The notes: generated by a model not told the origin, from the letters alone. Counted from the first letter of the stretch, positions 6,726-47,959 are shown. The stretch: 64,000 nucleotides of DNA from Nitrospirota bacterium (GCA_963703955.1 CAVPGK010000017.1:288001-352000); one strand, 5' to 3'. Made by a program: numbers and translations.

Positions 6726-7694
6726 ATGAAAACGACTAGGTTCTCCTTAATCGTGACAGGGCTTACTCTCTCAATCCTCTTTGTGTTCAGTGTACAACCG
6801 CTCCGGGCCGAAAGCCTGTACATTAGCAGTGTCGGTACTGATAGCGTTCTCCAGTTCGACGGGATAACAGGGGCATCTATCGGAACCTTTGTCCCCGCCG
6901 GCAGCGGTGGATTGGACAACCCCGGAGGCTTAGCCTTTGGGCCTGACAACAATCTTTATGTCAGCAGCCGAGCGACGAATAATGTGTTGCGATACAACGG
7001 CGTGACCGGTGCATTTGTCGATGTCTTTGTACCCTCAGGCAGTGGAGGTCTCGCGCAGCCTGTCGACCTTGCGTTTGGTCCTGACGGCCACCTCTATGTC
7101 TCGAACTTCGCAGGTATTCCTGACAACATCTTGCGCTATAACGGAATGACGGGGGCATTCATCGACATCTTTGCCACCGAGGCTACATTCAACACTCCCC
7201 GGCATGTCGAATTCGCGAATGGCATCCTGTGGGCTAGCGGTGAAGCGGACAGAATCTGGCGCTTCGATGCGACAACAGGAGCCTTCATCAATAAGCCGCT
7301 ATCCGACAATCCGCGTGGGTTGACCTTAGGGCCCGATGGCCACATGTATGTGAGCACGTCATTTTCAGGGATTTTTCGTCACGATAGCGGGACGGGCCTG
7401 TTGATCGACACCTTTATCCCGGGTCCATTACCACTAGGCGATAATGACTTAGCATTTGGCCCCGACGGACATCTGTATGTGAGCGGTGGTGACCGGGTGA
7501 GGCGCTTTGACGGCACAACCGGCGCGTTTATCGATAACTTCGTCTTGGCCAGCAGTGGTGGGCTGAGTGATGGCCGATATTTCACCTTTAGCTCGCAGGG
7601 GATTATTCCGGAACCCAACACGCTGGTTCTTCTGGGTTCGGGTTTGATAGGGCTGGTTGGCTTCCTTAAGAGGCGACCAAGGCCTGACCTGTAA
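6726..7694 (+). CDS. PEP-CTERM-sorted NHL/Vgb-like beta-propeller surface protein
   Basis: Signal peptide; repeated LAFGPDGHLYVS / RY-G-TGAFID blades; C-terminal IPEPNTLVLLGSGLIGLVGFLKRR. Confidence 0.9.
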   Translation: MKTTRFSLIVTGLTLSILFVFSVQPLRAESLYISSVGTDSVLQFDGITGASIGTFVPAGSGGLDNPGGLAFGPDNNLYVSSRATNNVLRYNGVTGAFVDVFVPSGSGGLAQPVDLAFGPDGHLYVSNFAGIPDNILRYNGMTGAFIDIFATEATFNTPRHVEFANGILWASGEADRIWRFDATTGAFINKPLSDNPRGLTLGPDGHMYVSTSFSGIFRHDSGTGLLIDTFIPGPLPLGDNDLAFGPDGHLYVSGGDRVRRFDGTTGAFIDNFVLASSGGLSDGRYFTFSSQGIIPEPNTLVLLGSGLIGLVGFLKRRPRPDL

Positions 7695-35696: not shown

Positions 35697-35771
35697 TGGA
35701 GCGGGAAATGGGATTTGAACCCACGACCCTCGCCTTGGCAAGGCGATGCTCTACCACTGAGCTATTCCCGC
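35697..35771 (-). tRNA. tRNA-Gly (GCC)
   Basis: Reverse complement GCGGGAATAGCTCAGTGGTAGAGCATCGCCTTGCCAAGGCGAGGGTCGTGGGTTCAAATCCCATTTCCCGCTCCA folds as a cloverleaf with encoded CCA. Confidence 0.98.
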
Positions 35772-36536: not shown

Positions 36537-37448
36537 TTAATATGAGGACTGTCGCATCAATCGATCTAACTTGCCATCCAAGGCGGCAAAGTCTTCCACG
36601 ATCTCAATCTTAGATTTCGCGAAGAGATCCCGCATGGCGAGCGCGCCATCTCCGCCGACAGTCAGATTGGAAACGGGGCTCACTTCATGAGCAAGGGCGT
36701 AGACCAGCTCCGCGGCCTTGGCCTCGGAAAGTGCGAGAGGAAAGGAAATGATCGTCAGGTCTGGCTCAACCTTGCTGCAGAGGTTGGTCACAGAAGCAAT
36801 GGGCACGTTGGCTCCCAAATAGTAGACACGGCAGCCGCGAACACGACATCGATACGCAACCGCCAACGCGGCAATGTCGTGTTCCTCACCGGGTGGGCAA
36901 GCTACGACCACTTTAGCGCCGAACTCAGCCACAGGGAGCTGATTCATGGCCGCGAAAATCCTTTGCTGGATTTGCTTCGTGACGTAATGTTCGATGGCAA
37001 TGTTTACATGACCCTCGTGCCACAGCCGTCCTACCTGTTCCTGGAGTGGGAGCAGGATCCCATGAAGCGCTTCTTCAAATGGAACTACTGCAACGGCCCC
37101 GTTTAAGCGTTTCTCGAACGTCACACGATCGAAGGGATCGAGTGAGGACAGAAGTTCCCGCAGGAGCCGGCTGAATGTATTGTCGACGAATGACACTTGA
37201 GGCGCACTGGCTCGGGCTCGTCTCAACAACTCCTCACGCCCCAATTTCGACAGCTCTCCTATCGAACCTCCAGCATCAAGCTGTCCTTTGAGATATCTCA
37301 GCAGCGCAACATCCTCATCAGAATAATTGCGATAACGATTGGCTCCACGGGTCGGTTTTACGAGGCCAAACCGGCGCTCCCATATCCGAATGACGTCTCG
37401 TGAGAGCCCAGTTAGTTTTGCAACCCTATGAATTCTATGCGTATTCAT
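36537..37448 (-). CDS. CarH/LitR-type MerR regulator with AdoB12-binding domain (photoreceptor)
   Basis: MerR HTH (IRIWERRFGL..P.R...YR.YS); W-x9-EH (WHEGHVNIAIEH); ExH B12 ligand (PPGEEH); YLGANVP. Confidence 0.9.
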   Translation of the reverse strand: MNTHRIHRVAKLTGLSRDVIRIWERRFGLVKPTRGANRYRNYSDEDVALLRYLKGQLDAGGSIGELSKLGREELLRRARASAPQVSFVDNTFSRLLRELLSSLDPFDRVTFEKRLNGAVAVVPFEEALHGILLPLQEQVGRLWHEGHVNIAIEHYVTKQIQQRIFAAMNQLPVAEFGAKVVVACPPGEEHDIAALAVAYRCRVRGCRVYYLGANVPIASVTNLCSKVEPDLTIISFPLALSEAKAAELVYALAHEVSPVSNLTVGGDGALAMRDLFAKSKIEIVEDFAALDGKLDRLMRQSSY

Positions 37449-37479
37449 TCTTTGTGGCTGATTATTGATTATATTGAAA

Positions 37480-37573
37480 TGTCAAATGTTTGTCAAATAT
37501 TATTTATAATAACACTTGACACATTGGACAATGTAGTTTATACATTAGACATACTTGCTACAAACATTGAACA
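37480..37573. promoter_or_regulatory. Candidate CarH/LitR operator (11-bp direct repeats) in a divergent promoter
   Basis: TGTCAAATGTT TGTCAAATATT tandem (37480-37501); ACA cores at 37549, 37560 and 37571 (11-bp period); TTGACA at 37516. Confidence 0.7.
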
Positions 37574-37593
37574 ACAAACCTATGGAGGTGATC

Positions 37594-37890
37594 ATGGCAA
37601 CAGCGTCGGCGGACAGAACGAGAGTGGATCAGCTACGGAACCGCGCAATCTCTTCTGCTGTCTCGCATGACTCGATGTGCACGAGGTGCGGCGGACTCAT
37701 GGTGAGTGACTTCAGCATGGATCTATTGAACAGCACCGGCGAGCCGGAGTTGGCCGCGAAACGTTGCGTGCAATGTGGAGAAGTCGTCGATGCGGTCATC
37801 CAGCGCAATCGGCAGCTCCGGCAAGAATCGATCACAGTTAGGCAAACAGAGAGGATGTTCCCAGAGATGATGAGCAAACAGAATCTCTAA
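37594..37890 (+). CDS. Small CxxC...CxxC zinc-ribbon-like protein
   Basis: CTRCGGLM...CVQCGEVVD; GGAGG RBS. Confidence 0.8.
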   Translation: MATASADRTRVDQLRNRAISSAVSHDSMCTRCGGLMVSDFSMDLLNSTGEPELAAKRCVQCGEVVDAVIQRNRQLRQESITVRQTERMFPEMMSKQNL

Positions 37891-37909
37891 CCGGGAAGGA
37901 GTAGACGCC

Positions 37910-38263
37910 ATGAGAGCAAGAGCATTGATATATGGGCTCACCATAGTTGTCGCGGCAACGATGGCGGGATGTGCAGCCGATGGAGGATCCCGAATGAACG
38001 TGGCCTCCGGGGAGGCCGTGAAACCCGTGACTGCGCGAGAGGCAGTGGATCGAGCCTTCGAGTATGGCCAGCAGGTGGCCGTGTTGCGTGATGAGGCCAG
38101 AAGGCTGGAACTCGAAGGCCGGGTGGCCATGCACCGGGCGGCTGAGAAGGAAGAGGCCACGCGTATCCTGGAGAAGGCTCGAGCCATGTGGACGGCGGCC
38201 GACACGGCCGAGGACACGGCCCGGGAATATCGGCGCCAGGTGCCACATAATCAAGTGAACTGA
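37910..38263 (+). CDS. Hypothetical helical lipoprotein
   Basis: Lipobox MAGC; AAGGAG RBS; Ala/Glu/Arg-rich helices. Confidence 0.78.
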   Translation: MRARALIYGLTIVVAATMAGCAADGGSRMNVASGEAVKPVTAREAVDRAFEYGQQVAVLRDEARRLELEGRVAMHRAAEKEEATRILEKARAMWTAADTAEDTAREYRRQVPHNQVN

Positions 38264-38341
38264 CTATGTCACGGAAGGTCTTTAGGAATGTTTTCAACCA
38301 ACCAGGGTCGTCCTGGTGTTCCCAAACCAAGGAGGTTTCCA

Positions 38342-39307
38342 ATGCGGAGTCAAACGGTTCTTCAGGTCGGATTGGGAGTGGTGTTGATGGCAGGAGCCAT
38401 CTCCATCGCAACAGCGGCAGATCAGCCGAGTAGCGACAAGGACATGGTGCTGATCCCCAAAGGTGAGTTCACCATGGGGAGCAACGAGCATTGGGATGAA
38501 GCGAAGCATCAGGTTGTGCTCGATGCGTATCTCATCGACAAGTATGAGACGTCGAACGCGCGGTACAAGGAATTTATGAAAGCCACCGGTCATCCGGCTC
38601 CGGCCTATTGGGACGATCCTCGGCTCAGCAAGGCTAATCAGCCGGTCGTCGGCGTGAGCTGGACTGACGCGGGTGCCTTCTGCAAGTGGGAAGGCAAGCG
38701 GCTTCCGACGGAAGGGGAATGGGAGCGCGCGGCCAAAGGTCCGGAAGGCGACAATCATTACCCATGGGGTCACAAGCTTGATCCCAAGAAAGCCAACTAT
38801 GGGCAGAATGTTGGCCATACCACGCCGGTGGATTCCTACCCCGAAGGAGTGAGCGGGTTCGGGGTCTACAACATGGCAGGGAACGTTTTTGAATGGGTCG
38901 AGGATTGGTATGACCCGAAACACTATAAGGAGAGCCTTGCCCTGAATCCACGCGGTGCCGAGAAAGGCTACAACTTTGCCAATCAGGGCCCGGTCAAGGT
39001 GCTGCGCGGTGGGTCCTGGCTCGCTCCGGAAACTTCGTTGCACACAAGTCACCGGTTCTGGAATCAGCCGGACAATAACTCCTATGGGGTCGGGCTCGGA
39101 TTCCGTTGCGCGAAGTCTGCGCAGACGATTTCTGACGAAGCCATGCAAGCAGGACGCGATGCATTCATTGCAGCGTTAGTCGCGATGGGAGCGGAAAAGA
39201 ACGCCGATGCGATGGCCTCCATCGAGAAGGCGCTGGCTGCGGAGCCGGCCAACAAGGAATACCTGGCCACCCGCGACCTGATCAAGAAGAGCATGAAGAA
39301 GAAATAG
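38342..39307 (+). CDS. Secreted FGE-sulfatase-fold (SUMF1/EgtB/PvdO family) protein 1 with TPR-like tail
   Basis: Signal peptide; GEFTMG, RLPTEGEWERAA, MAGNVFEW, RGGSW, GFRC. Confidence 0.9.
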   Translation: MRSQTVLQVGLGVVLMAGAISIATAADQPSSDKDMVLIPKGEFTMGSNEHWDEAKHQVVLDAYLIDKYETSNARYKEFMKATGHPAPAYWDDPRLSKANQPVVGVSWTDAGAFCKWEGKRLPTEGEWERAAKGPEGDNHYPWGHKLDPKKANYGQNVGHTTPVDSYPEGVSGFGVYNMAGNVFEWVEDWYDPKHYKESLALNPRGAEKGYNFANQGPVKVLRGGSWLAPETSLHTSHRFWNQPDNNSYGVGLGFRCAKSAQTISDEAMQAGRDAFIAALVAMGAEKNADAMASIEKALAAEPANKEYLATRDLIKKSMKKK

Positions 39308-39376
39308 CCGACAGACCGGTTGGGGGGCGGTGATCCCGTCCCCCTCCGGGTCAGACTTTGGGACGGGAGGATTGTG

Positions 39377-40435
39377 ATGAATGTGTCTAAAACCATAATG
39401 CTGGTGGTCCTGGTGATGGGCATGACGATGCTGACCGGAACAAGCCATGCGGAGGAATCATTGATTCCCAAAGAGATGGTGTACATCGGGCATGGGCCGT
39501 CGGTGATGGGGATTGATAAGGAAGCGCCTGCGGACTCAGGCAAAAAGCCGACGGCGTACGAGCGACGGATGAAGACGCCCTGGTCGGCCGACGCGTTGAA
39601 CGACGAGGGTCCGGCACATATGGTGTTTCTGGATTCGTACCTCATGGATAAGTACGAAGTCTCGAACAAAGATTATGGCGAGTTCATCAGAGCAAAAGGT
39701 CATGCGGCCCCAGCCTATTGGGATGATCCTCGCTTAAATAAGCCCGAAGACCCGGTGGTCGGAGTGAACTGGGAGGACGCCAAAACCTTCTGTGAATATC
39801 GCGGGAAGCGCCTTCCAACGGAAGCTGAATGGGAAAAAGCGGCTCGTGGTCCCAAGGCCAACCTCTACCCCTGGGGCAATTACTTTGATCCAGCCAAAGC
39901 GAACTACGGCAAGAATCACGACGCGACTATGCCGGTGGATTCCTATCCAGAGGGCGCGAGTTACTATGGCGTCTACAACATGGCGGGTAATGTCTTCGAG
40001 TGGGTCTCTGATTGGTATGACCCCCGTTACTATGGACGGCTTGAAACGATGGTGAATCCAACCGGTCCGGCAAAACCCATATGGATGGGCGGAACCGGCA
40101 CCTATGTTGACCGGCTGACGGTCGGGGAAAAGCGAGTCATTCGTGGAGGATCGTGGATCGCACCGGAAGGCACAGTCAGGGCAACCCACCGGTTCTGGAA
40201 TCACCCGCTTAACAACAGTTATGGCGTGGGCCTGGGCTTCCGTTGCGCCAAGACCGCCCCGCCCGAGATCGAACAGCAGATCAGGGACAGCTACATTTCT
40301 GCCTTAGTGGGGATGGGCAGAGAACGATTTGCGGACGCTCAACAGGCGGTGGCTCGTGGCCTGGCCATTGATCCCAAGAACGTTGAACTGTTGGAGCTCC
40401 ACCCGCTGATTGAGCAGTCGATGAAGAAGCTGTGA
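39377..40435 (+). CDS. Secreted FGE-sulfatase-fold protein 2 with TPR-like tail
   Basis: Signal peptide; RLPTEAEWEKAARG, MAGNVFEW, RGGSW, GFRC; close paralog of protein 1. Confidence 0.9.
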   Translation: MNVSKTIMLVVLVMGMTMLTGTSHAEESLIPKEMVYIGHGPSVMGIDKEAPADSGKKPTAYERRMKTPWSADALNDEGPAHMVFLDSYLMDKYEVSNKDYGEFIRAKGHAAPAYWDDPRLNKPEDPVVGVNWEDAKTFCEYRGKRLPTEAEWEKAARGPKANLYPWGNYFDPAKANYGKNHDATMPVDSYPEGASYYGVYNMAGNVFEWVSDWYDPRYYGRLETMVNPTGPAKPIWMGGTGTYVDRLTVGEKRVIRGGSWIAPEGTVRATHRFWNHPLNNSYGVGLGFRCAKTAPPEIEQQIRDSYISALVGMGRERFADAQQAVARGLAIDPKNVELLELHPLIEQSMKKL

Positions 40436-40488
40436 GGGAATCTTGCACCGTTCTTATGAACGGTGTGATCGTGATGGAGGCGTTACCG

Positions 40489-40857
40489 ATGAAACGTTAC
40501 ACAACTCTTGTATTCGGGATTTCATTCAGCGCGCTCCTGGGGATTACCGCCGTCCTGGCTGGACCCATAGATCCGGCCGGCCATCCGCATCCGGAGCACG
40601 GCAAGGCGGTCCATGAGGCCGAACATGACGTGGATCATGCGTGGGAGGTCTATCATCGCGCGGCGTTAGGGGGAACCGTCGCCGCCCCTGCTCTGCAGGC
40701 CGACATCGAGCAGCACCTGCACGAAGCCAGAACCCTCATTGATCAGGCGCAGGAGGCAGCCGAGCGGGGGGACAAGCGTCAGGTGCAGCGTCTTGTTGGT
40801 CAAATCAAAATCCATACGTCCCATGCCATCGAAGGGAGCAAGGAGCAGAAGAAATGA
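40489..40857 (+). CDS. His-rich periplasmic helical protein (SmbP-like, metal binding inferred)
   Basis: Signal peptide ending VLA; many His residues (HPHPEH, HEAEHDVDH, HLHEA, HTSH); GGAGG RBS. Confidence 0.7.
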   Translation: MKRYTTLVFGISFSALLGITAVLAGPIDPAGHPHPEHGKAVHEAEHDVDHAWEVYHRAALGGTVAAPALQADIEQHLHEARTLIDQAQEAAERGDKRQVQRLVGQIKIHTSHAIEGSKEQKK

Positions 40858-41699
40858 CACTAGGTCTGCGGAGGAGAACAACTCGCTGGAGAATGATTGC
40901 GGCGATTGTAGTGGCAGTCTGTGCCGTCGCGCAGTCGCCGGTTGTGGTGGCGGTGCCGGTTTCGAAGGAGCTTGCCCCGGTTCCTATGGTGACGATTCCA
41001 GCAGGAGAATTCTTGATGGGCAATCCAGAAGGAAAAGGCCGGGCCGACGAGTGGCCACAGCGATCCGTCTACCTCGATGCATTCGCGATCGATCAAGTCG
41101 AGGTGACGAATGAACGATATATGAGGTTCGTCATGTCCACCGGCCATCGAAATCCTCCCAATCCGTATGGCACCGGCCCGCTCCTGTCCGTGAAAGGGAT
41201 TGAGCAACTCCCTGTCGCGCAGACGACGTGGTACGACGCCAAGGCTTATTGCAGTTGGGCCAAGAAGCGGCTGCCGACGGAAGCGGAATGGGAAAAGGCC
41301 GCTCGCGGCACGGATGGTCGCCTGTTTCCCTGGGGCAATGAACCAGCGACATTGAAGCGGGCGAACTTTGACCGCGAATGGGAGGACGAAAAGACGTTAT
41401 ACCCGGTCGGGTCATTGCCTGGTGGAGACTCACCCTATGGGGTGAAGGACATGGCCGGCAATGCCAGGGAGTGGGTCTCTGACTGGTACGACCCGGAGTA
41501 CTACAAGCATGCGCCGGATCGGAATCCGCAGGGTCCTGACAAAAAAGGAGTGGTCCGATCGATTCGCGGCGGGTCATGGCATAGCCCGGTGGCCGATATC
41601 ACGACATCAGCAAGAGGTCGCGGCGGGTTTGCCCTGCAGACTCACGGCACCGGGTTCCGCTGTGCCCGTGGTCTCGAGGGGGAGATTCAGCAGAAGTAG
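40854..41699 (+). CDS. Secreted FGE-sulfatase-fold protein 3
   Basis: GEFLMG, RLPTEAEWEKAARG, MAGNAREW, RGGSW, GFRC; ATGA overlap with the upstream gene. Confidence 0.9.
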   Translation: MTLGLRRRTTRWRMIAAIVVAVCAVAQSPVVVAVPVSKELAPVPMVTIPAGEFLMGNPEGKGRADEWPQRSVYLDAFAIDQVEVTNERYMRFVMSTGHRNPPNPYGTGPLLSVKGIEQLPVAQTTWYDAKAYCSWAKKRLPTEAEWEKAARGTDGRLFPWGNEPATLKRANFDREWEDEKTLYPVGSLPGGDSPYGVKDMAGNAREWVSDWYDPEYYKHAPDRNPQGPDKKGVVRSIRGGSWHSPVADITTSARGRGGFALQTHGTGFRCARGLEGEIQQK

Positions 41700-41915
41700 C
41701 GGGCCGAGGTGGGATGTGAGGGAACTCAATAACAACGGCAGAAATCCGGAGGTCGGTTCTCTTTTACCGACCAGGTGGCGCCGCGACTCCGCACGGCGTC
41801 TTCCGCTGAGGCAGACGGGTCTCTCCCTCGGGAGGACCTCGTCCCCTCGGTGGGCAACTGGAGCGGCTCATATAAAGGTAGGCGCAGTACTGTCGGCAAT
41901 CACGAGGAGGACAGC

Positions 41916-42041
41916 ATGACCACGTTAATTGTGTTGGCAATGGTGGTGGCGGCTTTGAGCTGTTTGACGAGTGCTGCGCAATGGAGACCCGCTGTCGCGT
42001 TGCCGCGGCAGGCCGGATTGAGCAGCCCTTGTGTCAAGTAA
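41916..42041 (+). CDS. 41-aa small hydrophobic protein
   Basis: GAGGAGG RBS; MTTLIVLAMVVAALSCLTSAAQWRPAV... Confidence 0.55.
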   Translation: MTTLIVLAMVVAALSCLTSAAQWRPAVALPRQAGLSSPCVK

Positions 42042-42082
42042 GGAGGTTCGGTTGTCCTTCTTTATAGCCGTCGAGGGTTCCC

Positions 42083-42408
42083 GTGGAATCAAATGGGAGA
42101 CCAGACAATCCTGCTGTCTCTGCCCCGCACATCGACGACATCTGCGCGCGTTGTGGTGGACTGATGGTTTTGGCGCACTACATGGATCTGCAGGACGATA
42201 CAGGTCAGATCGGGATGACGGCGTACGATGCACGAGTTGCGGAGAGGTCGTCGACCCGGTCATTCTTCAGAACCGAGTCAAGCCGGCGCCGAATCTCTTG
42301 TACGGCACAAAGCAGCGCAAGTAGGTACAGCGAGTGGATGACGGTGAGTCGGATGGTTCAGTCAATCTGGACAGCAATGGCAGCGGAGAGGGCCATGGCC
42401 ATAGTTGA
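42083..42408 (+). pseudogene. Second CxxC...CxxC zinc-ribbon paralog, frameshifted
   Basis: CARCGGLM in one frame and RCTSCGEVVDPVILQNR in another; TAG at 42322. Confidence 0.7.
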
Positions 42409-42453
42409 CCAGGCCAGTGCCGCGTCGTAGCTCTCTGATAAGGAGATAACGCC

Positions 42454-43371
42454 ATGCACATCGTCGTGACCGGAGGGACGGGGTTCATCGGTCGGGCCCT
42501 GTGCGCTTCGTTGTTCCAGGATGGCCACCGAGTCACCATCCTCACGAGAGATGCGAGAGAAGCATCGCAGCTGTTGGGGGCGATCGTGACGGCGATCGAG
42601 TGGAATGGCCGAGAGGCGGGAGCCTGGGAGCAGTGTCTCGAAGGTGCCGATGCCGTCATCAACCTCGCTGGTGCGCCGATTGCCGATGCTCGCTGGACCA
42701 ATGCGAGGAAGCGACTCCTCACCGAGAGTCGAGTACTTACCACTCGCCTACTCGTCGAGGCCATGTCCAGCCGGTCGTCGAAACCTCGGACACTCATCAG
42801 CGCTTCCGGCATCGGCTACTACGGGGCCAGTGACGATCATGTGCTCGATGAGGGCGCGGCGCGCGGTCAGGGTTTTCTTGCCGACCTGTGCCTCGCATGG
42901 GAAGCAGACGCGCTGCGGGCGGCGGAGTTCGGTACGCGTGTCGTGCTGGTACGAACCGGAATGGTGCTCGAACATGATGGCGGCGCGCTGCCGAAGATGC
43001 TGTTGCCGTTTAGGCTTTTCGCGGGCGGCCCGATCATGCCGGGAACTCAGTGGGTCTCCTGGATCCATCGGCGCGATCACATCGGGTTGATTCAGTGGGC
43101 GATTACGACTCCCAACGTCTCCGGTCCCGTCAATGCCGTGGCACCTGGTCCTGTGACGATGAACACGTTCTGTGAAGATCTCGGGCGCGTCCTCCACCGG
43201 CCCTCCTGGCTTCCGGTACCGGGTTTGGCGCTGAAAGTTGTGCTGGGGGAACTGGGAACGCTCATGACGACCGGTCAACGGGTCAATCCTACGAAGGCGC
43301 TGGCCGGCGGCTATGTCTTTCGGTATCCGACGCTGGAACCCGCACTACGAGCAATTCTCACGAAAGGATAG
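42454..43371 (+). CDS. TIGR01777 family NAD-dependent epimerase/oxidoreductase (YfcH-like)
   Basis: TGGTGFIG, INLAG..I...RW, SASGIGYYG, WIHRRD, PVNAVAP. Confidence 0.93.
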   Translation: MHIVVTGGTGFIGRALCASLFQDGHRVTILTRDAREASQLLGAIVTAIEWNGREAGAWEQCLEGADAVINLAGAPIADARWTNARKRLLTESRVLTTRLLVEAMSSRSSKPRTLISASGIGYYGASDDHVLDEGAARGQGFLADLCLAWEADALRAAEFGTRVVLVRTGMVLEHDGGALPKMLLPFRLFAGGPIMPGTQWVSWIHRRDHIGLIQWAITTPNVSGPVNAVAPGPVTMNTFCEDLGRVLHRPSWLPVPGLALKVVLGELGTLMTTGQRVNPTKALAGGYVFRYPTLEPALRAILTKG

Positions 43372-43384
43372 AGGAGCGTCTGAA

Positions 43385-43855
43385 ATGGTGTCGCTGATCG
43401 AATATCTTCACTTGCTGGCCGCCGCCGTTCTTGTCGGCAAGGTCGTGCTCTTGTCTTTCGTGGTGGCGCCTATTCTTGCGAAGAATCTGGAGCGAGAGCC
43501 GTTCGGCAAAGTCGTGCGCCAACTGTTTCCGGCTTATTATGCATTGGGAATGGGGACGGCGATGGTGGGACTAATCTCCGTGGCAGGGCTGGGGCTGATC
43601 CGCGGCATGAGTGGGGCTCTGCTTGTCGCCGGTGGGACTTGGCTCCTCATTTTCGTGGCCGAAGCCTATTGCCGATGGCCGCTGACGCCGCAGAGTAATG
43701 CGATGAGGGATCGGCTCAAGGAGCAGGAATCACGGGGAGCTGTCGATCCCGCTTTGCAGGCCGCGTGGAATCAATTGCATCAACGGTCAGTCTATCTGAA
43801 CTCACTCGTGCTACTCGCGGGACTGTGTTTACTCGGTCTGGCAAGTCGATTGTAG
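43385..43855 (+). CDS. DUF4149/TMEM205-like membrane protein
   Basis: 4 TM; SFVVAP..., LFPAYY, LHQRSVYLN. Confidence 0.82.
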   Translation: MVSLIEYLHLLAAAVLVGKVVLLSFVVAPILAKNLEREPFGKVVRQLFPAYYALGMGTAMVGLISVAGLGLIRGMSGALLVAGGTWLLIFVAEAYCRWPLTPQSNAMRDRLKEQESRGAVDPALQAAWNQLHQRSVYLNSLVLLAGLCLLGLASRL

Positions 43856-43874
43856 GTCACAAGGAGGAACGCAC

Positions 43875-44328
43875 ATGAGGATCAAGGGAATCCATATCGG
43901 CGGCAGGTGTGATGATGGGCCTTCTGTTGACCGGTGCGGCCGGGGCTGCTGACCAGCCCGTGAGCCTGGCTCCGTATGCGAATGGAGATGATGCCAAGCT
44001 GCCGATCGGCGTGATCGGCGTGTCGCTCCAGGTCGGGGCTGAGCGTATCGGTGATCCAGCGGTGCTGTATGTCGGGATGGTGCATCCGGAGGGACCAGCT
44101 CACCAAGCAGGGCTCAGACATGGAGATGAGGTCGTGACCGTGGATGGGACGACGGTGACGGGGAAGAGTTATGAGCAGGTGGTCAAGATGATCCGGGGAG
44201 AAGCGGGAACCATCGTGAAGTTGGGGGTCAAAGGTGACGGAGGAAATCGGGAACTTTCCATCACACGTGTGGCCAGCGATAAACTCCCGAAGGATCCGAC
44301 GGGATCGCACGGTGGTCCTTCTAGATAG
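43875..44328 (+). CDS. Secreted single-PDZ protein (frameshift in signal peptide)
   Basis: GVIGV, GPAHQAGLRHGDEVVTVDG, IRGEAGT; the ATG at 43875 with AGGAGG RBS is out of frame with the PDZ ORF at 43909. Confidence 0.8.
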
Positions 44329-44337
44329 GAGTTCATC

Positions 44338-45123
44338 GTGGTGAGTCACATCAAAATCGTAGCGTTGTTCGGGCTGCTCATCCTGTTGGGCGGAGGGTCG
44401 GCATTCGCTGAACCAAGCCGTCCACTGTCCGGCCAGATTCATTCGAACGTCACTAGGATGGATCTGTATCTGGCTGCCGGCGACTACCGGCGTGCGCTCG
44501 AGACCTGCCAGCGCGAGATCGACGACGCGCCGTCGGCTGCAAGCTACATCCACCTCACCTATGTGTATCAGGCGATCGATGCCTATTTAGAACATCTATC
44601 GCAGGAAGAGCGGTGGATGGCCGTTGAGCACCTGTATCTCAATCTTGCGTACCGCGACACCGAAGACTTCGTCGATCCTCCGGGAGGACTTGCCCGCATG
44701 GCCAAGGAAATGATCCAGGCGAGCGGGGATATCAAATTGTTGGGCGGGTTGTTCCTGATCGTGGGGGCCGTGGACCTCGTCATCATCGTATTGTTCCCCT
44801 TCTACGCCTTGAAACTCTTCGGGACAGCCGTGACCGGTTCTTTGTCGTTTCTGGTTAAACTTCACTCCCCCGCCGTGCATTTATTGATCGGGTACGGATT
44901 TCTTGCGTCCCTGGGCCCTGGGGCCTCAGCCTGGGGCGTATGCGGGATTCGGGATAGTGAGCGAAGCGATGAATCAACTCGCCCTCGGATTCCACATGGT
45001 CCGTTCAAAATTCATCGCGACCACCGCTTTGTTCGTCATCTATTTGTTCTGGCGCCGGCAACTCTTCACTGATCAGCCGGCTATGACGACCACCAGGCCG
45101 TCTGTTCGGAAGGATCGCACTGA
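44338..45123 (+). CDS. Apparent chimera: secreted helical protein N-part fused to a small membrane protein, with further frameshifts
   Basis: Abrupt switch from soluble TPR-like sequence to TM segments at MIQAS|GDIKLLGGLF (about 44725); the hydrophobic frame continues in ORF 44903. Confidence 0.55.
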
Positions 45124-46568
45124 TGCACGGTATTGTGTGGCTCAGACGGGACCTCAGGCTCTCCGACCAGCCGGCCCTGACGGCGGCCTGTGAGGCATGC
45201 AGCGAAGTGATTCCTCTCTTTGTGTTCGACGAGCCGCTCTTGCAGTCCCATGTCTTCGGCTCCGCCTGCGTGAACTTCATGCTCGGCTGCCTACAAGATT
45301 TGGCTGCGTCGTTGGCCGGTCGAGGCGTCCCGCTCCAATGGCGTCGCGGAGAACCAGTGCAAGAAGTTGTTCAAGCCGCACGTGAATGGAAGGCGGACGT
45401 CGTCTATTGGAATCGCGACTACGAGCCGGGGGCGATCGAGCGAGACCGCGCGGTCCAACACCGACTCGCAAAGATGGGCGTGGTGGTCCGCACGTTCAAG
45501 GACCACGTCGTGTTTGAAGGGGAAGAAGTCGTCGGGGTAACCGGTGATCCGATGCAGCGCTACGGCGCCTATCGCGCACGCTGGTGGGTCAAGTGGCAGG
45601 CGACGAAACCGCCGGTGCTGCCCATTCCCAAAACGTTAACGGCTGAAAAAGCTTCGTTCCTGCCCTCCCCTCGTCCAATCCCCACGGCTGGTGAGCTGGG
45701 GTACGAGCTGGTCACGCCCTGGATCGAGGCTGGCGAGCGAAGCGCCCGGAAGCGGCTGGGCTGGTTCATCGAAGGGCCGATTCATACCTATGTCAACGGC
45801 AGGAACCTGCCGGCTATCGATGGGAGTTCACAACTCTCTCCCCACTTTCGATTCGGAACGCTTTCGCCTCGTGCCGCGATCCATGCCGCCTTGGCCGCTC
45901 TCGCGAAGGGTGGTCGGGTTTCGAGAGCCGACGTCCTGACGTGGATTGATGAACTGGTGTGGAGAGAATTCTTCCAGCAAGTATTGTCGGCGTTTCCGCG
46001 CGTCGTTGACGGTCCATTCCGTCACGTTGCAGTCCCTCCTGCCCGTGTTCCAGGGTTGGAACGGGACCGGCTGTTTCAGGCCTGGTGTGATGGGAAGACC
46101 GGCTATCCGATCGTGGATGCGGGCATGCGCCAACTCAACAGGACGGGCTGGATGCATAACCGTGTACGAATGATCGCGGCGTCATTTCTAATCAAGGACC
46201 TTCGGATTGACTGGCAGAGCGGTGAACGCTATTTCATGCAGCACCTCATTGATGCTGATGTCGCGGCCAACAACGGTAACTGGCAGTGGTGTGCCTCGAC
46301 CGGCACGGACGCGATGCGAGGGCATCGTATTTTCAACCCGGTTCTGCAAAGCAAGAAGTTCGATCCGGACGGAATCTACATCCGTGAGTACGTGCCGGAA
46401 CTGGCGAAGGTCGCGAGCAAATGGATTCATGCGCCGCATCTGATAACCCCGAACGAACAAGTTCGATATGGTTGTCGTATCGGGGTCGACTACCCTGCGG
46501 CCATCGTGGATCATCGGCAAGCCCGCCAGGAATATTTGGATCTCGGCAAGCAACAGGTGACGAGATGA
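45123..46568 (+). CDS. phrB: Deoxyribodipyrimidine photolyase (class I-like)
   Basis: WLRRDLRL.D.PAL, SQLSPHFRFG, WREFF, GWMHNRVRM, NNGNWQW, RIFNP. Confidence 0.95.
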   Translation: MHGIVWLRRDLRLSDQPALTAACEACSEVIPLFVFDEPLLQSHVFGSACVNFMLGCLQDLAASLAGRGVPLQWRRGEPVQEVVQAAREWKADVVYWNRDYEPGAIERDRAVQHRLAKMGVVVRTFKDHVVFEGEEVVGVTGDPMQRYGAYRARWWVKWQATKPPVLPIPKTLTAEKASFLPSPRPIPTAGELGYELVTPWIEAGERSARKRLGWFIEGPIHTYVNGRNLPAIDGSSQLSPHFRFGTLSPRAAIHAALAALAKGGRVSRADVLTWIDELVWREFFQQVLSAFPRVVDGPFRHVAVPPARVPGLERDRLFQAWCDGKTGYPIVDAGMRQLNRTGWMHNRVRMIAASFLIKDLRIDWQSGERYFMQHLIDADVAANNGNWQWCASTGTDAMRGHRIFNPVLQSKKFDPDGIYIREYVPELAKVASKWIHAPHLITPNEQVRYGCRIGVDYPAAIVDHRQARQEYLDLGKQQVTR

Positions 46569-47518
46569 CGACCGCGACGCTTCGTCTTGGGATCAGCCGT
46601 TGTCTCCTCGGAGACGAAGTCCGGTTCGACGGGGGACATAAGCGGGACAATTTTCTGACGGACGTGTTCGGTCGCTATGTGGAATGGGTCCCCGTCTGTC
46701 CTGAAGTCGAAGCCGGACTCGGTACTCCTCGGGAAGCGATGCGGTTGGTTGGTGATCCCCGCCATCCCCGTCTCGTGACAATCAGAAGCGGAAACGATCA
46801 CACGCAGGTGTTGGTGACGATGACTGCAAAGCGCATCGAAGAACTCAAGGAGCTGGACCTCTCCGGGTATGTGTTCAAGAAGGATTCACCGAGCTGCGGC
46901 GTCGAACGAGTCCGTCTCTACAATGAGCAAGGGATGCCTAGCCGGAACGGGGTCGGGGTATTCGCGCGGGCCTTTATCGAGCAATTCCCGCTGATTCCCG
47001 TTGAGGAGGAAGGGCGGCTCTGTGATCCTCCGCTCAGGGAGAATTTTATCGAGAGGGTCTTCTGCTACCGTCGATTCCAGGGTCTTGTGCAGAACGGGAT
47101 CACGAGACAGGCTGTGGTGCGGTTTCACACGATCCACAAGTATCTGCTCCTCTCCCATAGCCAGCAGCACTACCAAGTCCTCGGGCGGCTAGTCGGTCAA
47201 GCGGAGCACCACCGTCCCAAGGAGCTGGCCTTAAGGTATGGGGAACTCTTCATGAAGACGTTGGCCGTGAAGGCGACGGTGCGCAAGCACGTAAATGTGT
47301 TGCAGCACATTCTGGGCTACTTCAAGGACCGATTGGGCGATCAAGAGAAAGCGGAACTGTTGGGCGTGATCGGCGATTATCATCGAGGGCTCACGCCCTT
47401 GATTGTCCCTCTCACACTGATCAAGCACTACGTTCAGGTCTTCGATGTCGGCTACATTCGCGACCAGGTGTATCTCAATCCTCACCCGAAAGAACTCATG
47501 TTGCGAAACCATGTGTAA
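46565..47518 (+). CDS. ybgA: DUF523-DUF1722 protein (YbgA/RudS-type thiouracil/4-thiouridine desulfidase)
   Basis: SRCLLG..VRFDGGHK, VCPEVE.GLGTPRE, SPSCG (three Fe-S Cys), FH..HKYLL, NVLQHILGYFK, YLNPHP; ATGA overlap with phrB. Confidence 0.92.
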   Translation: MTTATLRLGISRCLLGDEVRFDGGHKRDNFLTDVFGRYVEWVPVCPEVEAGLGTPREAMRLVGDPRHPRLVTIRSGNDHTQVLVTMTAKRIEELKELDLSGYVFKKDSPSCGVERVRLYNEQGMPSRNGVGVFARAFIEQFPLIPVEEEGRLCDPPLRENFIERVFCYRRFQGLVQNGITRQAVVRFHTIHKYLLLSHSQQHYQVLGRLVGQAEHHRPKELALRYGELFMKTLAVKATVRKHVNVLQHILGYFKDRLGDQEKAELLGVIGDYHRGLTPLIVPLTLIKHYVQVFDVGYIRDQVYLNPHPKELMLRNHV

Positions 47519-47921: not shown

Positions 47922-47959
47922 CTTGGCAAGGCGATGCTCTACCACTGAGCTATTCCCGC
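47922..47959 (-). repeat. att site: displaced 5' half of tRNA-Gly
   Basis: CTTGGCAAGGCGATGCTCTACCACTGAGCTATTCCCGC is identical to 35734-35771. Confidence 0.95.

Follow-up and report, generated by a model that had tools for sequence, protein, structure and literature searches.

That light inhibits nitrite oxidation has long been known, yet in Nitrospira the effect has hardly been explained in molecular terms. It influences how nitrite accumulates in sunlit waters and matters for efforts to suppress nitrite oxidisers during wastewater treatment. What, in such an organism, does a regulator resembling the B12-dependent photoreceptor CarH control? The question is raised by an operon in a Nitrospirota bacterium (GCA_963703955.1, CAVPGK010000017.1:288001-352000; assembly 82% complete), whose 64,000 nt we analysed and refer to throughout as the window. 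An open reading frame (ORF) listing and Pfam and NCBIfam scans confirmed gene order and orientation over positions 36537-47518, and all the genes that a preliminary description, made from the sequence alone, had placed in a co-oriented run opposite a MerR regulator are present in the order and orientation it gave. The operon has two tiers: a head, comprising genes for a Zn-ribbon protein, the formylglycine-generating enzyme (FGE)-fold protein FGE1, the optional FGE2, a three-helix protein and FGE3; then a two-hairpin RNA; then a tail with TIGR01777, DUF4149, PDZ, photolyase, RudS and usually CbiX genes. We regard it as a variant CarH/LitR regulon whose head encodes uncharacterised, putatively periplasmic proteins made in great abundance.

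The order of genes at this locus is conserved far beyond chance expectation. Counting linkage in the 80 best of 264 confirmed FGE1 loci, we observed a divergent carH beside FGE1 in 69 of 71 loci with at least 1.4 kb of upstream sequence. Where at least 9 kb of downstream sequence was available (53 loci), the three-helix gene and FGE3 were always present (53/53), together with TIGR01777 (48), rudS (48), photolyase (47), PDZ (45), cbiX (41), FGE2 (36) and DUF4149 (26). This neighbourhood survey across the Nitrospirales bears out the proposed association of FGE genes with carH, photolyase and ybgA (rudS). The gene list of the preliminary description stands as to the genes present and needs amendment: the lipoprotein gene is an insertion, found in one of the 53 long loci, and the second Zn-ribbon gene and a chimeric gene are broken in this assembly. 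FGE1 was found in at least 158 of the order's 251 genomes, and the true number may be higher, since no more than nine candidates per genome were scored; the relatives retrieved with it carry the titles Nitrospira, Nitrospiraceae, Nitrospirales, Nitrospirae and Nitrospirota, plus one nitrite-oxidiser bin. A profile of the three-helix protein matched 45 genomes out of 64 in one main family, 25 out of 36 in the other and three of six in two sister families, with no match in the remaining families of the 301 genomes searched; among 1.84 billion representative sequences it found 58 clusters at E <1e-10. The operon is present in about 70% of the sampled genomes of the two main families. We found no published description of this Nitrospira operon in a literature search that was incomplete for subscription papers; a look-up of terms found no mention of MerR in PMC12342949 or of CarH/LitR in PMC9239080.

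The regulator shares the domain order of class I CarH/LitR proteins of Thermus thermophilus, Bacillus megaterium and Myxococcus, with a MerR domain, a four-helix B12-binding_2 domain and a Rossmann-type B12-binding domain (Pfam), and its closest solved structure is T. thermophilus CarH (5c8d, E 7.2e-26). As in class I, a Wx9EH motif (W143-x9-E153-H154) precedes the ExH motif of the lower ligand (E188-x-H190); these residues, together with S235 and G265-G266, are invariant in 99 of 99 close orthologues, and a histidine follows the tryptophan (H144 in the window) in 97 of them. Two motif positions vary, being A193 and P237 in the window, with glycine in 63 and threonine in 72 of the 99 orthologues, respectively; the D/ExHx2G/Px41SxT/Vx22-27GG photoreceptor motif is present. 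The sections of PMC9304148 available to us give the Wx9EH and D/ExH motifs as marks of photoactive CarH, describe adenosylcobalamin (AdoCbl)-bound CarH tetramers that repress in the dark and monomeric apo- or light-exposed Thermus CarH, and describe the CarH operator as an 11-bp unit, nnnnTnnACAn, repeated in tandem across the -35 or -10 element.

The 145-bp region between carH and the operon has this architecture, with a sigma-70 carH promoter and repeated TnnACA boxes, one pair spaced 11 bp on the carH side and boxes spaced 21, 11 and 11 bp on the operon side, one of them degenerate. The tandem boxes over a -35 TTGACA, the RxWERR[YF] helix of the regulator and the divergent layout of autoregulated genes are further likenesses to class I systems. 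Across 82 distinct intergenic regions we counted 397 TnnACA boxes on the operon strand (shuffle mean 73, maximum 98) and 145 on the other strand (shuffle mean 56, maximum 74), mostly at 11-bp spacing; these counts are not independent because the 82 loci are related. The operator is unique in the window's assembly, scoring 63 with a position weight matrix against -0.7 for the next site, and the genome-wide scan of this 82%-complete assembly found no second operator. The CarH-type B12 control put forward earlier fits both the regulator motifs and the conserved operator. We consider that the regulator very probably controls its own operon, and that light probably modulates it; the TnnACA pair overlapping the carH promoter suggests that carH is autoregulated as well. 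From its sequence the protein is CarH-like, outside the curated CarH equivalog. A second, distant CarH paralogue (about 30% identity) lies at the operon end in L014-L017, L103, L106-L108, L112, L113, L115, L119, L121 and L018; it keeps the tryptophan, the glutamate and the lower-ligand histidine, and the histidine of EH in only 8 of 14.

FGE1 is the most conserved and most expressed gene of the operon. In Table S1 of PMC6606698, from an N. moscoviensis chemostat in a glass reactor (the words "light" and "dark" are absent from the main text), the FGE1 transcript ranks 8th of about 4,390 coding sequences, at 6,821 reads per kilobase per million (RPKM); FGE3 ranks 42nd (2,312 RPKM), the three-helix gene 65th (1,647) and carH 275th. 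The tail values are far smaller (second Zn-ribbon 180, TIGR01777 51, PDZ 84, phrA 60, rudS 46 and cbiX 69 RPKM), the transcript drop from FGE3 to TIGR01777 being 45-fold. In PMC9381531, whose N. moscoviensis cultures were kept dark unless otherwise stated and whose Table S1 is ordered by abundance, FGE1 and the PDZ protein occupy the 29th and 30th data rows, and FGE3, three-helix, TIGR01777, CbiX, PhrA and RudS proteins were all detected, as were de novo cobalamin enzymes. FGE1 protein was also detected in Table S1 of PMC8407350 (rank 359). The PDZ protein, NITMOv2_0141, is about 30th as a protein in PMC9381531 and its mRNA ranks 2,350th in PMC6606698.

Because FGE1 is about the 29th protein in dark-kept cultures, a system that is off in the dark is unsupported. 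The FGE module had been proposed as a light-induced emergency function; in that form the proposal is not supported, given the high dark levels of FGE1 and the PDZ protein and the persistence of the head in 18 sigma-54-type loci that lack a divergent carH, 17 of which also have no photolyase in the locus. Brief light during handling of a slow grower, or incomplete loading of the cofactor, could account for the dark expression. According to the part of PMC9797979 available to us, light of wavelengths below 550 nm inhibits N. inopinata and affects its nitrite oxidation the most.

Alternatively, the regulator might mainly be a B12 gauge whose apo-protein derepresses a cobalt/corrinoid or tetrapyrrole scavenging module with photolyase as a passenger. 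In Thermus and Myxococcus, CarH without its cofactor is a monomer, as it is in the light form (in the sections of PMC9304148 noted above), several carriers lack cbiC/cbiD, N. marina requires added B12 (PMC8115632), neither N. moscoviensis study lists vitamins in its media, and the tail contains CbiX. However, N. moscoviensis has high FGE1 even though it carries the genes for de novo cobalamin synthesis and makes the enzymes, starvation lowers those enzymes 4- to 25-fold and changes FGE1 only 1.4-fold, and none of the conserved operon genes was recognised as a B12 transporter; we regard the gauge as improbable.

What, then, are the abundant head proteins? A hydropathy scan shows a hydrophobic, signal-like stretch at the start of each of FGE1-3, of the three-helix protein and of the lipoprotein, and FGE1, FGE2, the three-helix protein and FGE3 look exported. 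All three FGE proteins match the FGE-sulfatase domain (PF03781, E 2e-47 to 6.5e-54). Like formylglycine-generating enzymes (SUMF1; Streptomyces FGE, 6muj) they have the FGE domain (E 1.4e-34) with its RLPTEAEWE and RGGS...GFRC core; unlike them they lack both copper-binding catalytic cysteines, as seen in the alignment of FGE1 to 6muj and in the pocket motifs of all three, and no sulfatase is found in the operon. One conserved cysteine pair is left. For alignment A3 we removed two FGE3 references with internal stops (L060, L042); the FGE paralogue tree resolves little of the branching order, with 3 of 17 branches starred, and an AlphaFold model of FGE1 (pLDDT 41) was not used. Conservation is high, at 62-96% identity.

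An FGE scaffold without catalytic cysteines is also found in NirV, PvdO, GldK/PorK, EgtB/OvoA/SenA and Tsi3, of which NirV, implicated in nitrite reduction, is the nearest functional analogy. The Nitrospira proteins differ from this group in NCBIfam scores far under cut-off (the PvdO and EgtB models among them), in lacking DinB and in their distinct conserved pocket motifs. The same comparison bears on two other explanations. In the first, a light-switched periplasmic photoprotection, the FGE proteins quench or export photosensitising porphyrins or, much as PvdO or EgtB would, mature a protective metabolite. An invariant His/aromatic patch of FGE1/2 at the position of the FGE active site, the CbiX chelatase in 41 of 53 long loci, the operon of L120 that lies divergent from hemE-hemH-hemY with TspO in between, and the genome's second TIGR01777 gene, divergent from the same haem genes, all speak for it. 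We nevertheless judge it clearly unlikely, given the low PvdO and EgtB scores, the three-helix protein's lack of a DinB-like His triad, the abundance in dark-kept cultures and the head's retention under a sigma-54 cassette without photolyase. In the second, the FGE proteins are defence binding scaffolds, like Tsi3 type VI immunity proteins or lectin-like sensors; cysteine-less FGE-like proteins do serve as type VI secretion immunity proteins, according to the part of bioRxiv 10.1101/2021.05.21.445229 available to us. This explanation, already disfavoured, is highly improbable in view of the strong conservation and of conserved neighbours that include no effector or vgrG.

The three-helix protein had been labelled His-rich, a label that does not fit: across 32 homologues it has one invariant and one near-invariant histidine. 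Its stop codon is part of an ATGA in 87 of 87 loci. It has no Pfam match, and no DinB match was found near the FGE domain; the idea of a split EgtB (a helical His domain plus an FGE protein) was dropped since the histidines are not conserved, and the genome's own EgtB-like gene is located away from the operon. The protein may resemble SmbP (PF16785) as a small, putatively exported helical bundle, with an Atlas language-model feature score of 0.85 to an SMBP cluster, which we treat as a lead only; it differs in that three helices are modelled, most histidines are not conserved and Pfam gives no match. Searches with its model returned generic bundles (best Z 10.6 at a root mean square deviation of 4.0), and Foldseek returned no match under E 0.001, the SmbP test row 3u8v scoring E 0.46 and TM 0.21. 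Because only generic bundles were found, we neither assign nor exclude a family. A complex prediction for FGE3 with the three-helix protein scored 0.01 and was taken neither for nor against binding. True SmbP genes occur separately near some operons.

The boundary between head and tail is marked by a conserved two-hairpin RNA after FGE3, across which the 45-fold transcript drop falls. The preliminary description had reported neither this element nor the 38-bp tRNA-Gly repeat discussed below. Alignment A4 retained 54 sequences after removal of two of 69 element matches that lacked the loop motif, duplicates and near-identical rows. In these sequences 95.8% of cells pair, against 45-48% in slid controls, a comparison biased in favour of the structure in that it was derived from the same 54 sequences; 12 of 21 pairs changed on both sides, mostly in the second hairpin, a number reached in 0 of 500 shuffles. 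The sequence of the first hairpin loop is conserved, and the element with its flanks folds at z -4.1. Rfam does not contain it, a search giving two chance snoRNA rows (E 2.8 and 4.5), neither over the element. A covariance model found a single copy in 12 of 61 genomes, all of family f1 and all within the operon. In one study RNA contigs cover the head, end at L054 13431-13453, in the first hairpin, and restart at about 13500; contigs cannot show RNA ends or levels, and missing cover of the tail proves nothing. In deeper-branching relatives (L001, L002, L005, L009, L117, L118, L151) a two-hairpin RNA lies directly before photolyase, not after FGE3.

In some loci the control of the head or its cargo has changed. 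In 18 hand-picked loci, all of family f2 (L015-L017, L100, L101, L103, L104, L114-L116, L139-L145, L149), a histidine kinase, a sigma-54 activator and/or a -24/-12 promoter with a palindrome replace the divergent carH and its boxes. The parts of the cassette are a PAS histidine kinase, a receiver-sigma-54 activator, a lone receiver, the -24/-12 promoter and the conserved palindrome, and no locus has both carH and sigma-54 inputs. The head is kept in all 18, and photolyase is found in 1 of 18 compared with 12 of 17 carH-type loci of the comparison set. An NxrC homologue (E 3.5e-30 to 7b04_C) is present in the fetched spans of 14 of 18 sigma-54-type and 0 of 17 carH-type loci, and is a second copy in three of the four such genomes checked. 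We do not claim the cassette kinase as a nitrate/nitrite sensor (PilJ match of 23.6 bits, under the threshold of 26.6; no structure hit). A formate/nitrite transporter gene adjoins the sigma-54-type operon in L100, with a similar gene in L101.

Other nitrification subunits were found when 115 FGE1 loci were compared. Eight have a co-oriented amoC match immediately behind the RNA; of the five that were read, those of L035, L077 and L078 are full length (266 aa) and those of L032 and L071 carry frameshifts. We regard amoC as cargo that recurs, not as a core gene. A PmoD-like (amoD-like) gene is present in 9 loci (E 1.8e-7 to 6cpd), NapC/NirT cytochromes in or near 16, and an SDR-DUF2867 gene in 37. 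The window's genome has 21 FGE matches, and others of these paralogues adjoin bd-like oxidase/cytochrome, hemD, multicopper and thioredoxin genes. Some loci (L050, L053, L055, L056, L087, L090, L091, L093, L095, L099) have a second cassette close to the operon, in most cases headed by a further carH, in which a NapC/NirT cytochrome is accompanied by SmbP and one additional FGE paralogue. L125 (G000:C12:98500-108500) holds two more FGE-fold genes between two cytochrome bd-like subunit I genes and a dihaem cytochrome gene, and L012:4317-5636 and L018:188-1435 encode a two-domain multicopper oxidase fused to cytochrome c, in or beside carH-linked genes.

A replaceable regulator, very high levels without reported light and the 45-fold step from head to tail would also be expected if the head were a near-constitutive envelope or housekeeping module that acquired the carH cassette and light-stress tail as neighbours, with light only fine-tuning it. 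Yet only one promoter-like site was seen ahead of the head, and the operator overlaps it; the operator is conserved in both families and beyond the order, and some complete genomes without carH also show no head. We rate this explanation as quite improbable.

The tail likens the operon to the Pseudomonas class II LitR operons (phrB, rudS, ufaM, cryB, fol genes), as far as described in the parts of PMC9758184 and PMC11417400 available to us: both have photolyase and RudS, and Nitrospira relatives share DUF1365, cyclopropane synthase, desaturase and CryB. Class II LitR lacks one B12 domain and works with a LOV protein, whereas the Nitrospira regulator has both domains, and those parts do not mention an FGE head. 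PMC11417400 describes RudS as an eraser of photosensitive 4-thiouridine that is common in light operons; the protein encoded here, predicted to be RudS, has the cluster-cysteine spacing listed for RudS. In L009:10870-16585 and L120 the tail runs on into desaturase, DUF1365 and cyclopropane-synthase genes (a furan fatty-acid type cluster). Compared with class I CarH/LitR, the conserved cargo lacks carotenoid genes, having the FGE-fold head and nitrification subunits instead, and the operon is substantially expressed in dark-kept cells.

From these observations, we hypothesize that the operon, tuned by light and B12, serves the maintenance of periplasmic redox proteins of nitrification and has a general light-stress tail attached to it, a reading we favour tentatively; that the head serves nitrification metalloproteins seems to us a close call, tilting slightly to the negative. 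An AdoCbl-loaded tetrameric CarH-type repressor would bind the 11-bp-spaced TnnACA repeats over both divergent promoters, and photolysis of the cofactor by light, or cofactor shortage, would lift a repression that would be leaky or partial in laboratory cultures. A single transcript would begin before the Zn-ribbon gene; FGE1, FGE2, the three-helix protein and FGE3 would be made in very large amounts and exported, and the RNA after FGE3 would act as a 3' end, processing site or attenuator, leaving tail mRNA far scarcer. The tail would provide a familiar light-stress kit (photolyase, RudS, TIGR01777 and a CbiX-type chelatase), extended in some relatives by furan/cyclopropane fatty-acid genes, TspO and CryB. 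The head would most likely bind, protect, re-metallate or turn over damaged periplasmic haem or metal redox subunits, its FGE proteins acting as non-catalytic FGE-fold partners of nitrification redox proteins, and lineages would park spare subunits (amoC, amoD-like, NapC/NirT cytochrome, nxrC) in the operon.

Several observations count against this hypothesis. The head is missing from two single-contig genomes and one 70-contig genome in which all candidates were scored, and is thus dispensable; L005 has carH and the tail but no FGE genes; and several FGE paralogues lie beside unrelated genes (L123, L124). The spare-subunit cargo occurs in a minority of loci and is absent from the window's own operon, and the sigma-54 lineages are close kin that may represent a single event. 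The regulator scores 121.4 bits on the NCBIfam CarH equivalog model NF052513, below the cut-off of 400, and tight dark repression is doubtful because the operon, FGE1 and PDZ protein foremost, is well expressed in the dark by a strain that has and expresses a de novo cobalamin pathway. We stress that the biochemistry of the head, and with it its activity and partners, is what we infer, as we do cofactor binding, the light response and the role of the RNA.

The remaining features of the locus are collected in Table 1. The 12-kb operon is flanked on both sides by an exact 38-bp direct repeat of the 5' part of tRNA-Gly, which suggests integration at tRNA-Gly; no integrase was seen between the two repeats. 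In relatives the operon more often sits between tRNA-Leu and pyrE. From 48518 onwards lies an nxrA-like gene with a Tat signal, in several frameshifted pieces; these may be assembly errors, a cause that may also lie behind the operon frameshifts. We do not count this gene as an operon member because it lacks a sigma-54 signature like that of the rewired loci and lies beyond the tRNA repeat.

Table 1. Features of the carH-linked operon and its flanks, in positions of the window
Feature	Position	Strand	Remarks
tRNA-Gly repeat, first arm	35734..35771	-	5' 38 bp of tRNA-Gly(GCC) (gene 35697-35771); direct-repeat arm, att-like
CarH-type MerR regulator	36537..37448	-	Adenosylcobalamin-binding domain predicted; Pfam, structure match, motifs
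carH promoter	37468..37501	-	Predicted; 12/12 sigma-70 match; two TnnACA repeats 11 bp apart on top
Operon promoter and operator	37516..37574	+	Predicted; -35 TTGACA; TnnACA at about 37525, 37546, 37557 (degenerate) and 37568
Zn-ribbon protein	37594..37890	+	Small, CxxC...CxxC; first gene of the operon; about 10 paralogues in genome
Lipoprotein	37910..38263	+	Lipobox Cys21; lineage-specific insertion
FGE1	38342..39307	+	Putatively exported; FGE fold without catalytic cysteines; C-terminal helical hairpin
FGE2	39377..40435	+	Optional sister paralogue of FGE1
Three-helix-bundle protein	40489..40857	+	Putatively exported; stop overlaps FGE3 start
FGE3	40854..41699	+	Second type of putatively exported FGE-fold protein; no catalytic cysteines
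Two-hairpin RNA	41772..41862	+	Conserved; head/tail boundary
Hydrophobic peptide ORF	41916..42041	+	41 aa; similar stretch in 8 related loci
Second Zn-ribbon gene	42083..42324	+	Frameshift-split here
TIGR01777 protein	42454..43371	+	YfcH/ThyD-like, NAD-dependent epimerase family; 338.7 bits, cut-off 207
DUF4149 membrane protein	43385..43855	+	Pfam
PDZ protein	43909..44328	+	Single PDZ; start uncertain here; exported in N. moscoviensis annotation
Chimeric gene	44338..45072	+	Deletion-fusion of two normally separate genes (N-terminal part of exported helical protein; small membrane protein) plus frameshift
Photolyase	45123..46568	+	Class I-type, cyclobutane pyrimidine dimer
RudS/YbgA	46565..47518	+	DUF523-DUF1722; three cluster cysteines
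tRNA-Gly repeat, second copy	47922..47959	-	38 bp

Most nitrifying Nitrospira share abundant, putatively exported and uncharacterised proteins behind a predicted B12 light sensor, and the locus also brings a new structured RNA and a naturally occurring exchange of regulators. It supplies a candidate light sensor, its operator and its targets in cultured strains, and so a testable handle on light sensitivity; presence or absence of the operon is predicted to foretell which strains tolerate light. A stronger version, somewhat unlikely as we see it, is a B12-photoreceptor-gated repair and spare-parts system in which the FGE and three-helix proteins would form a new class of periplasmic chaperones or repair factors for photodamaged NXR, AMO and cytochromes, ranking with the most abundant proteins of the cell, with an RNA-gated tail for DNA and tRNA repair and amoC/amoD/nxrC supply, rewired in places to sigma-54 two-component control. 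If true, this system would help to determine, at the molecular level, how well nitrite oxidisers and comammox tolerate light.

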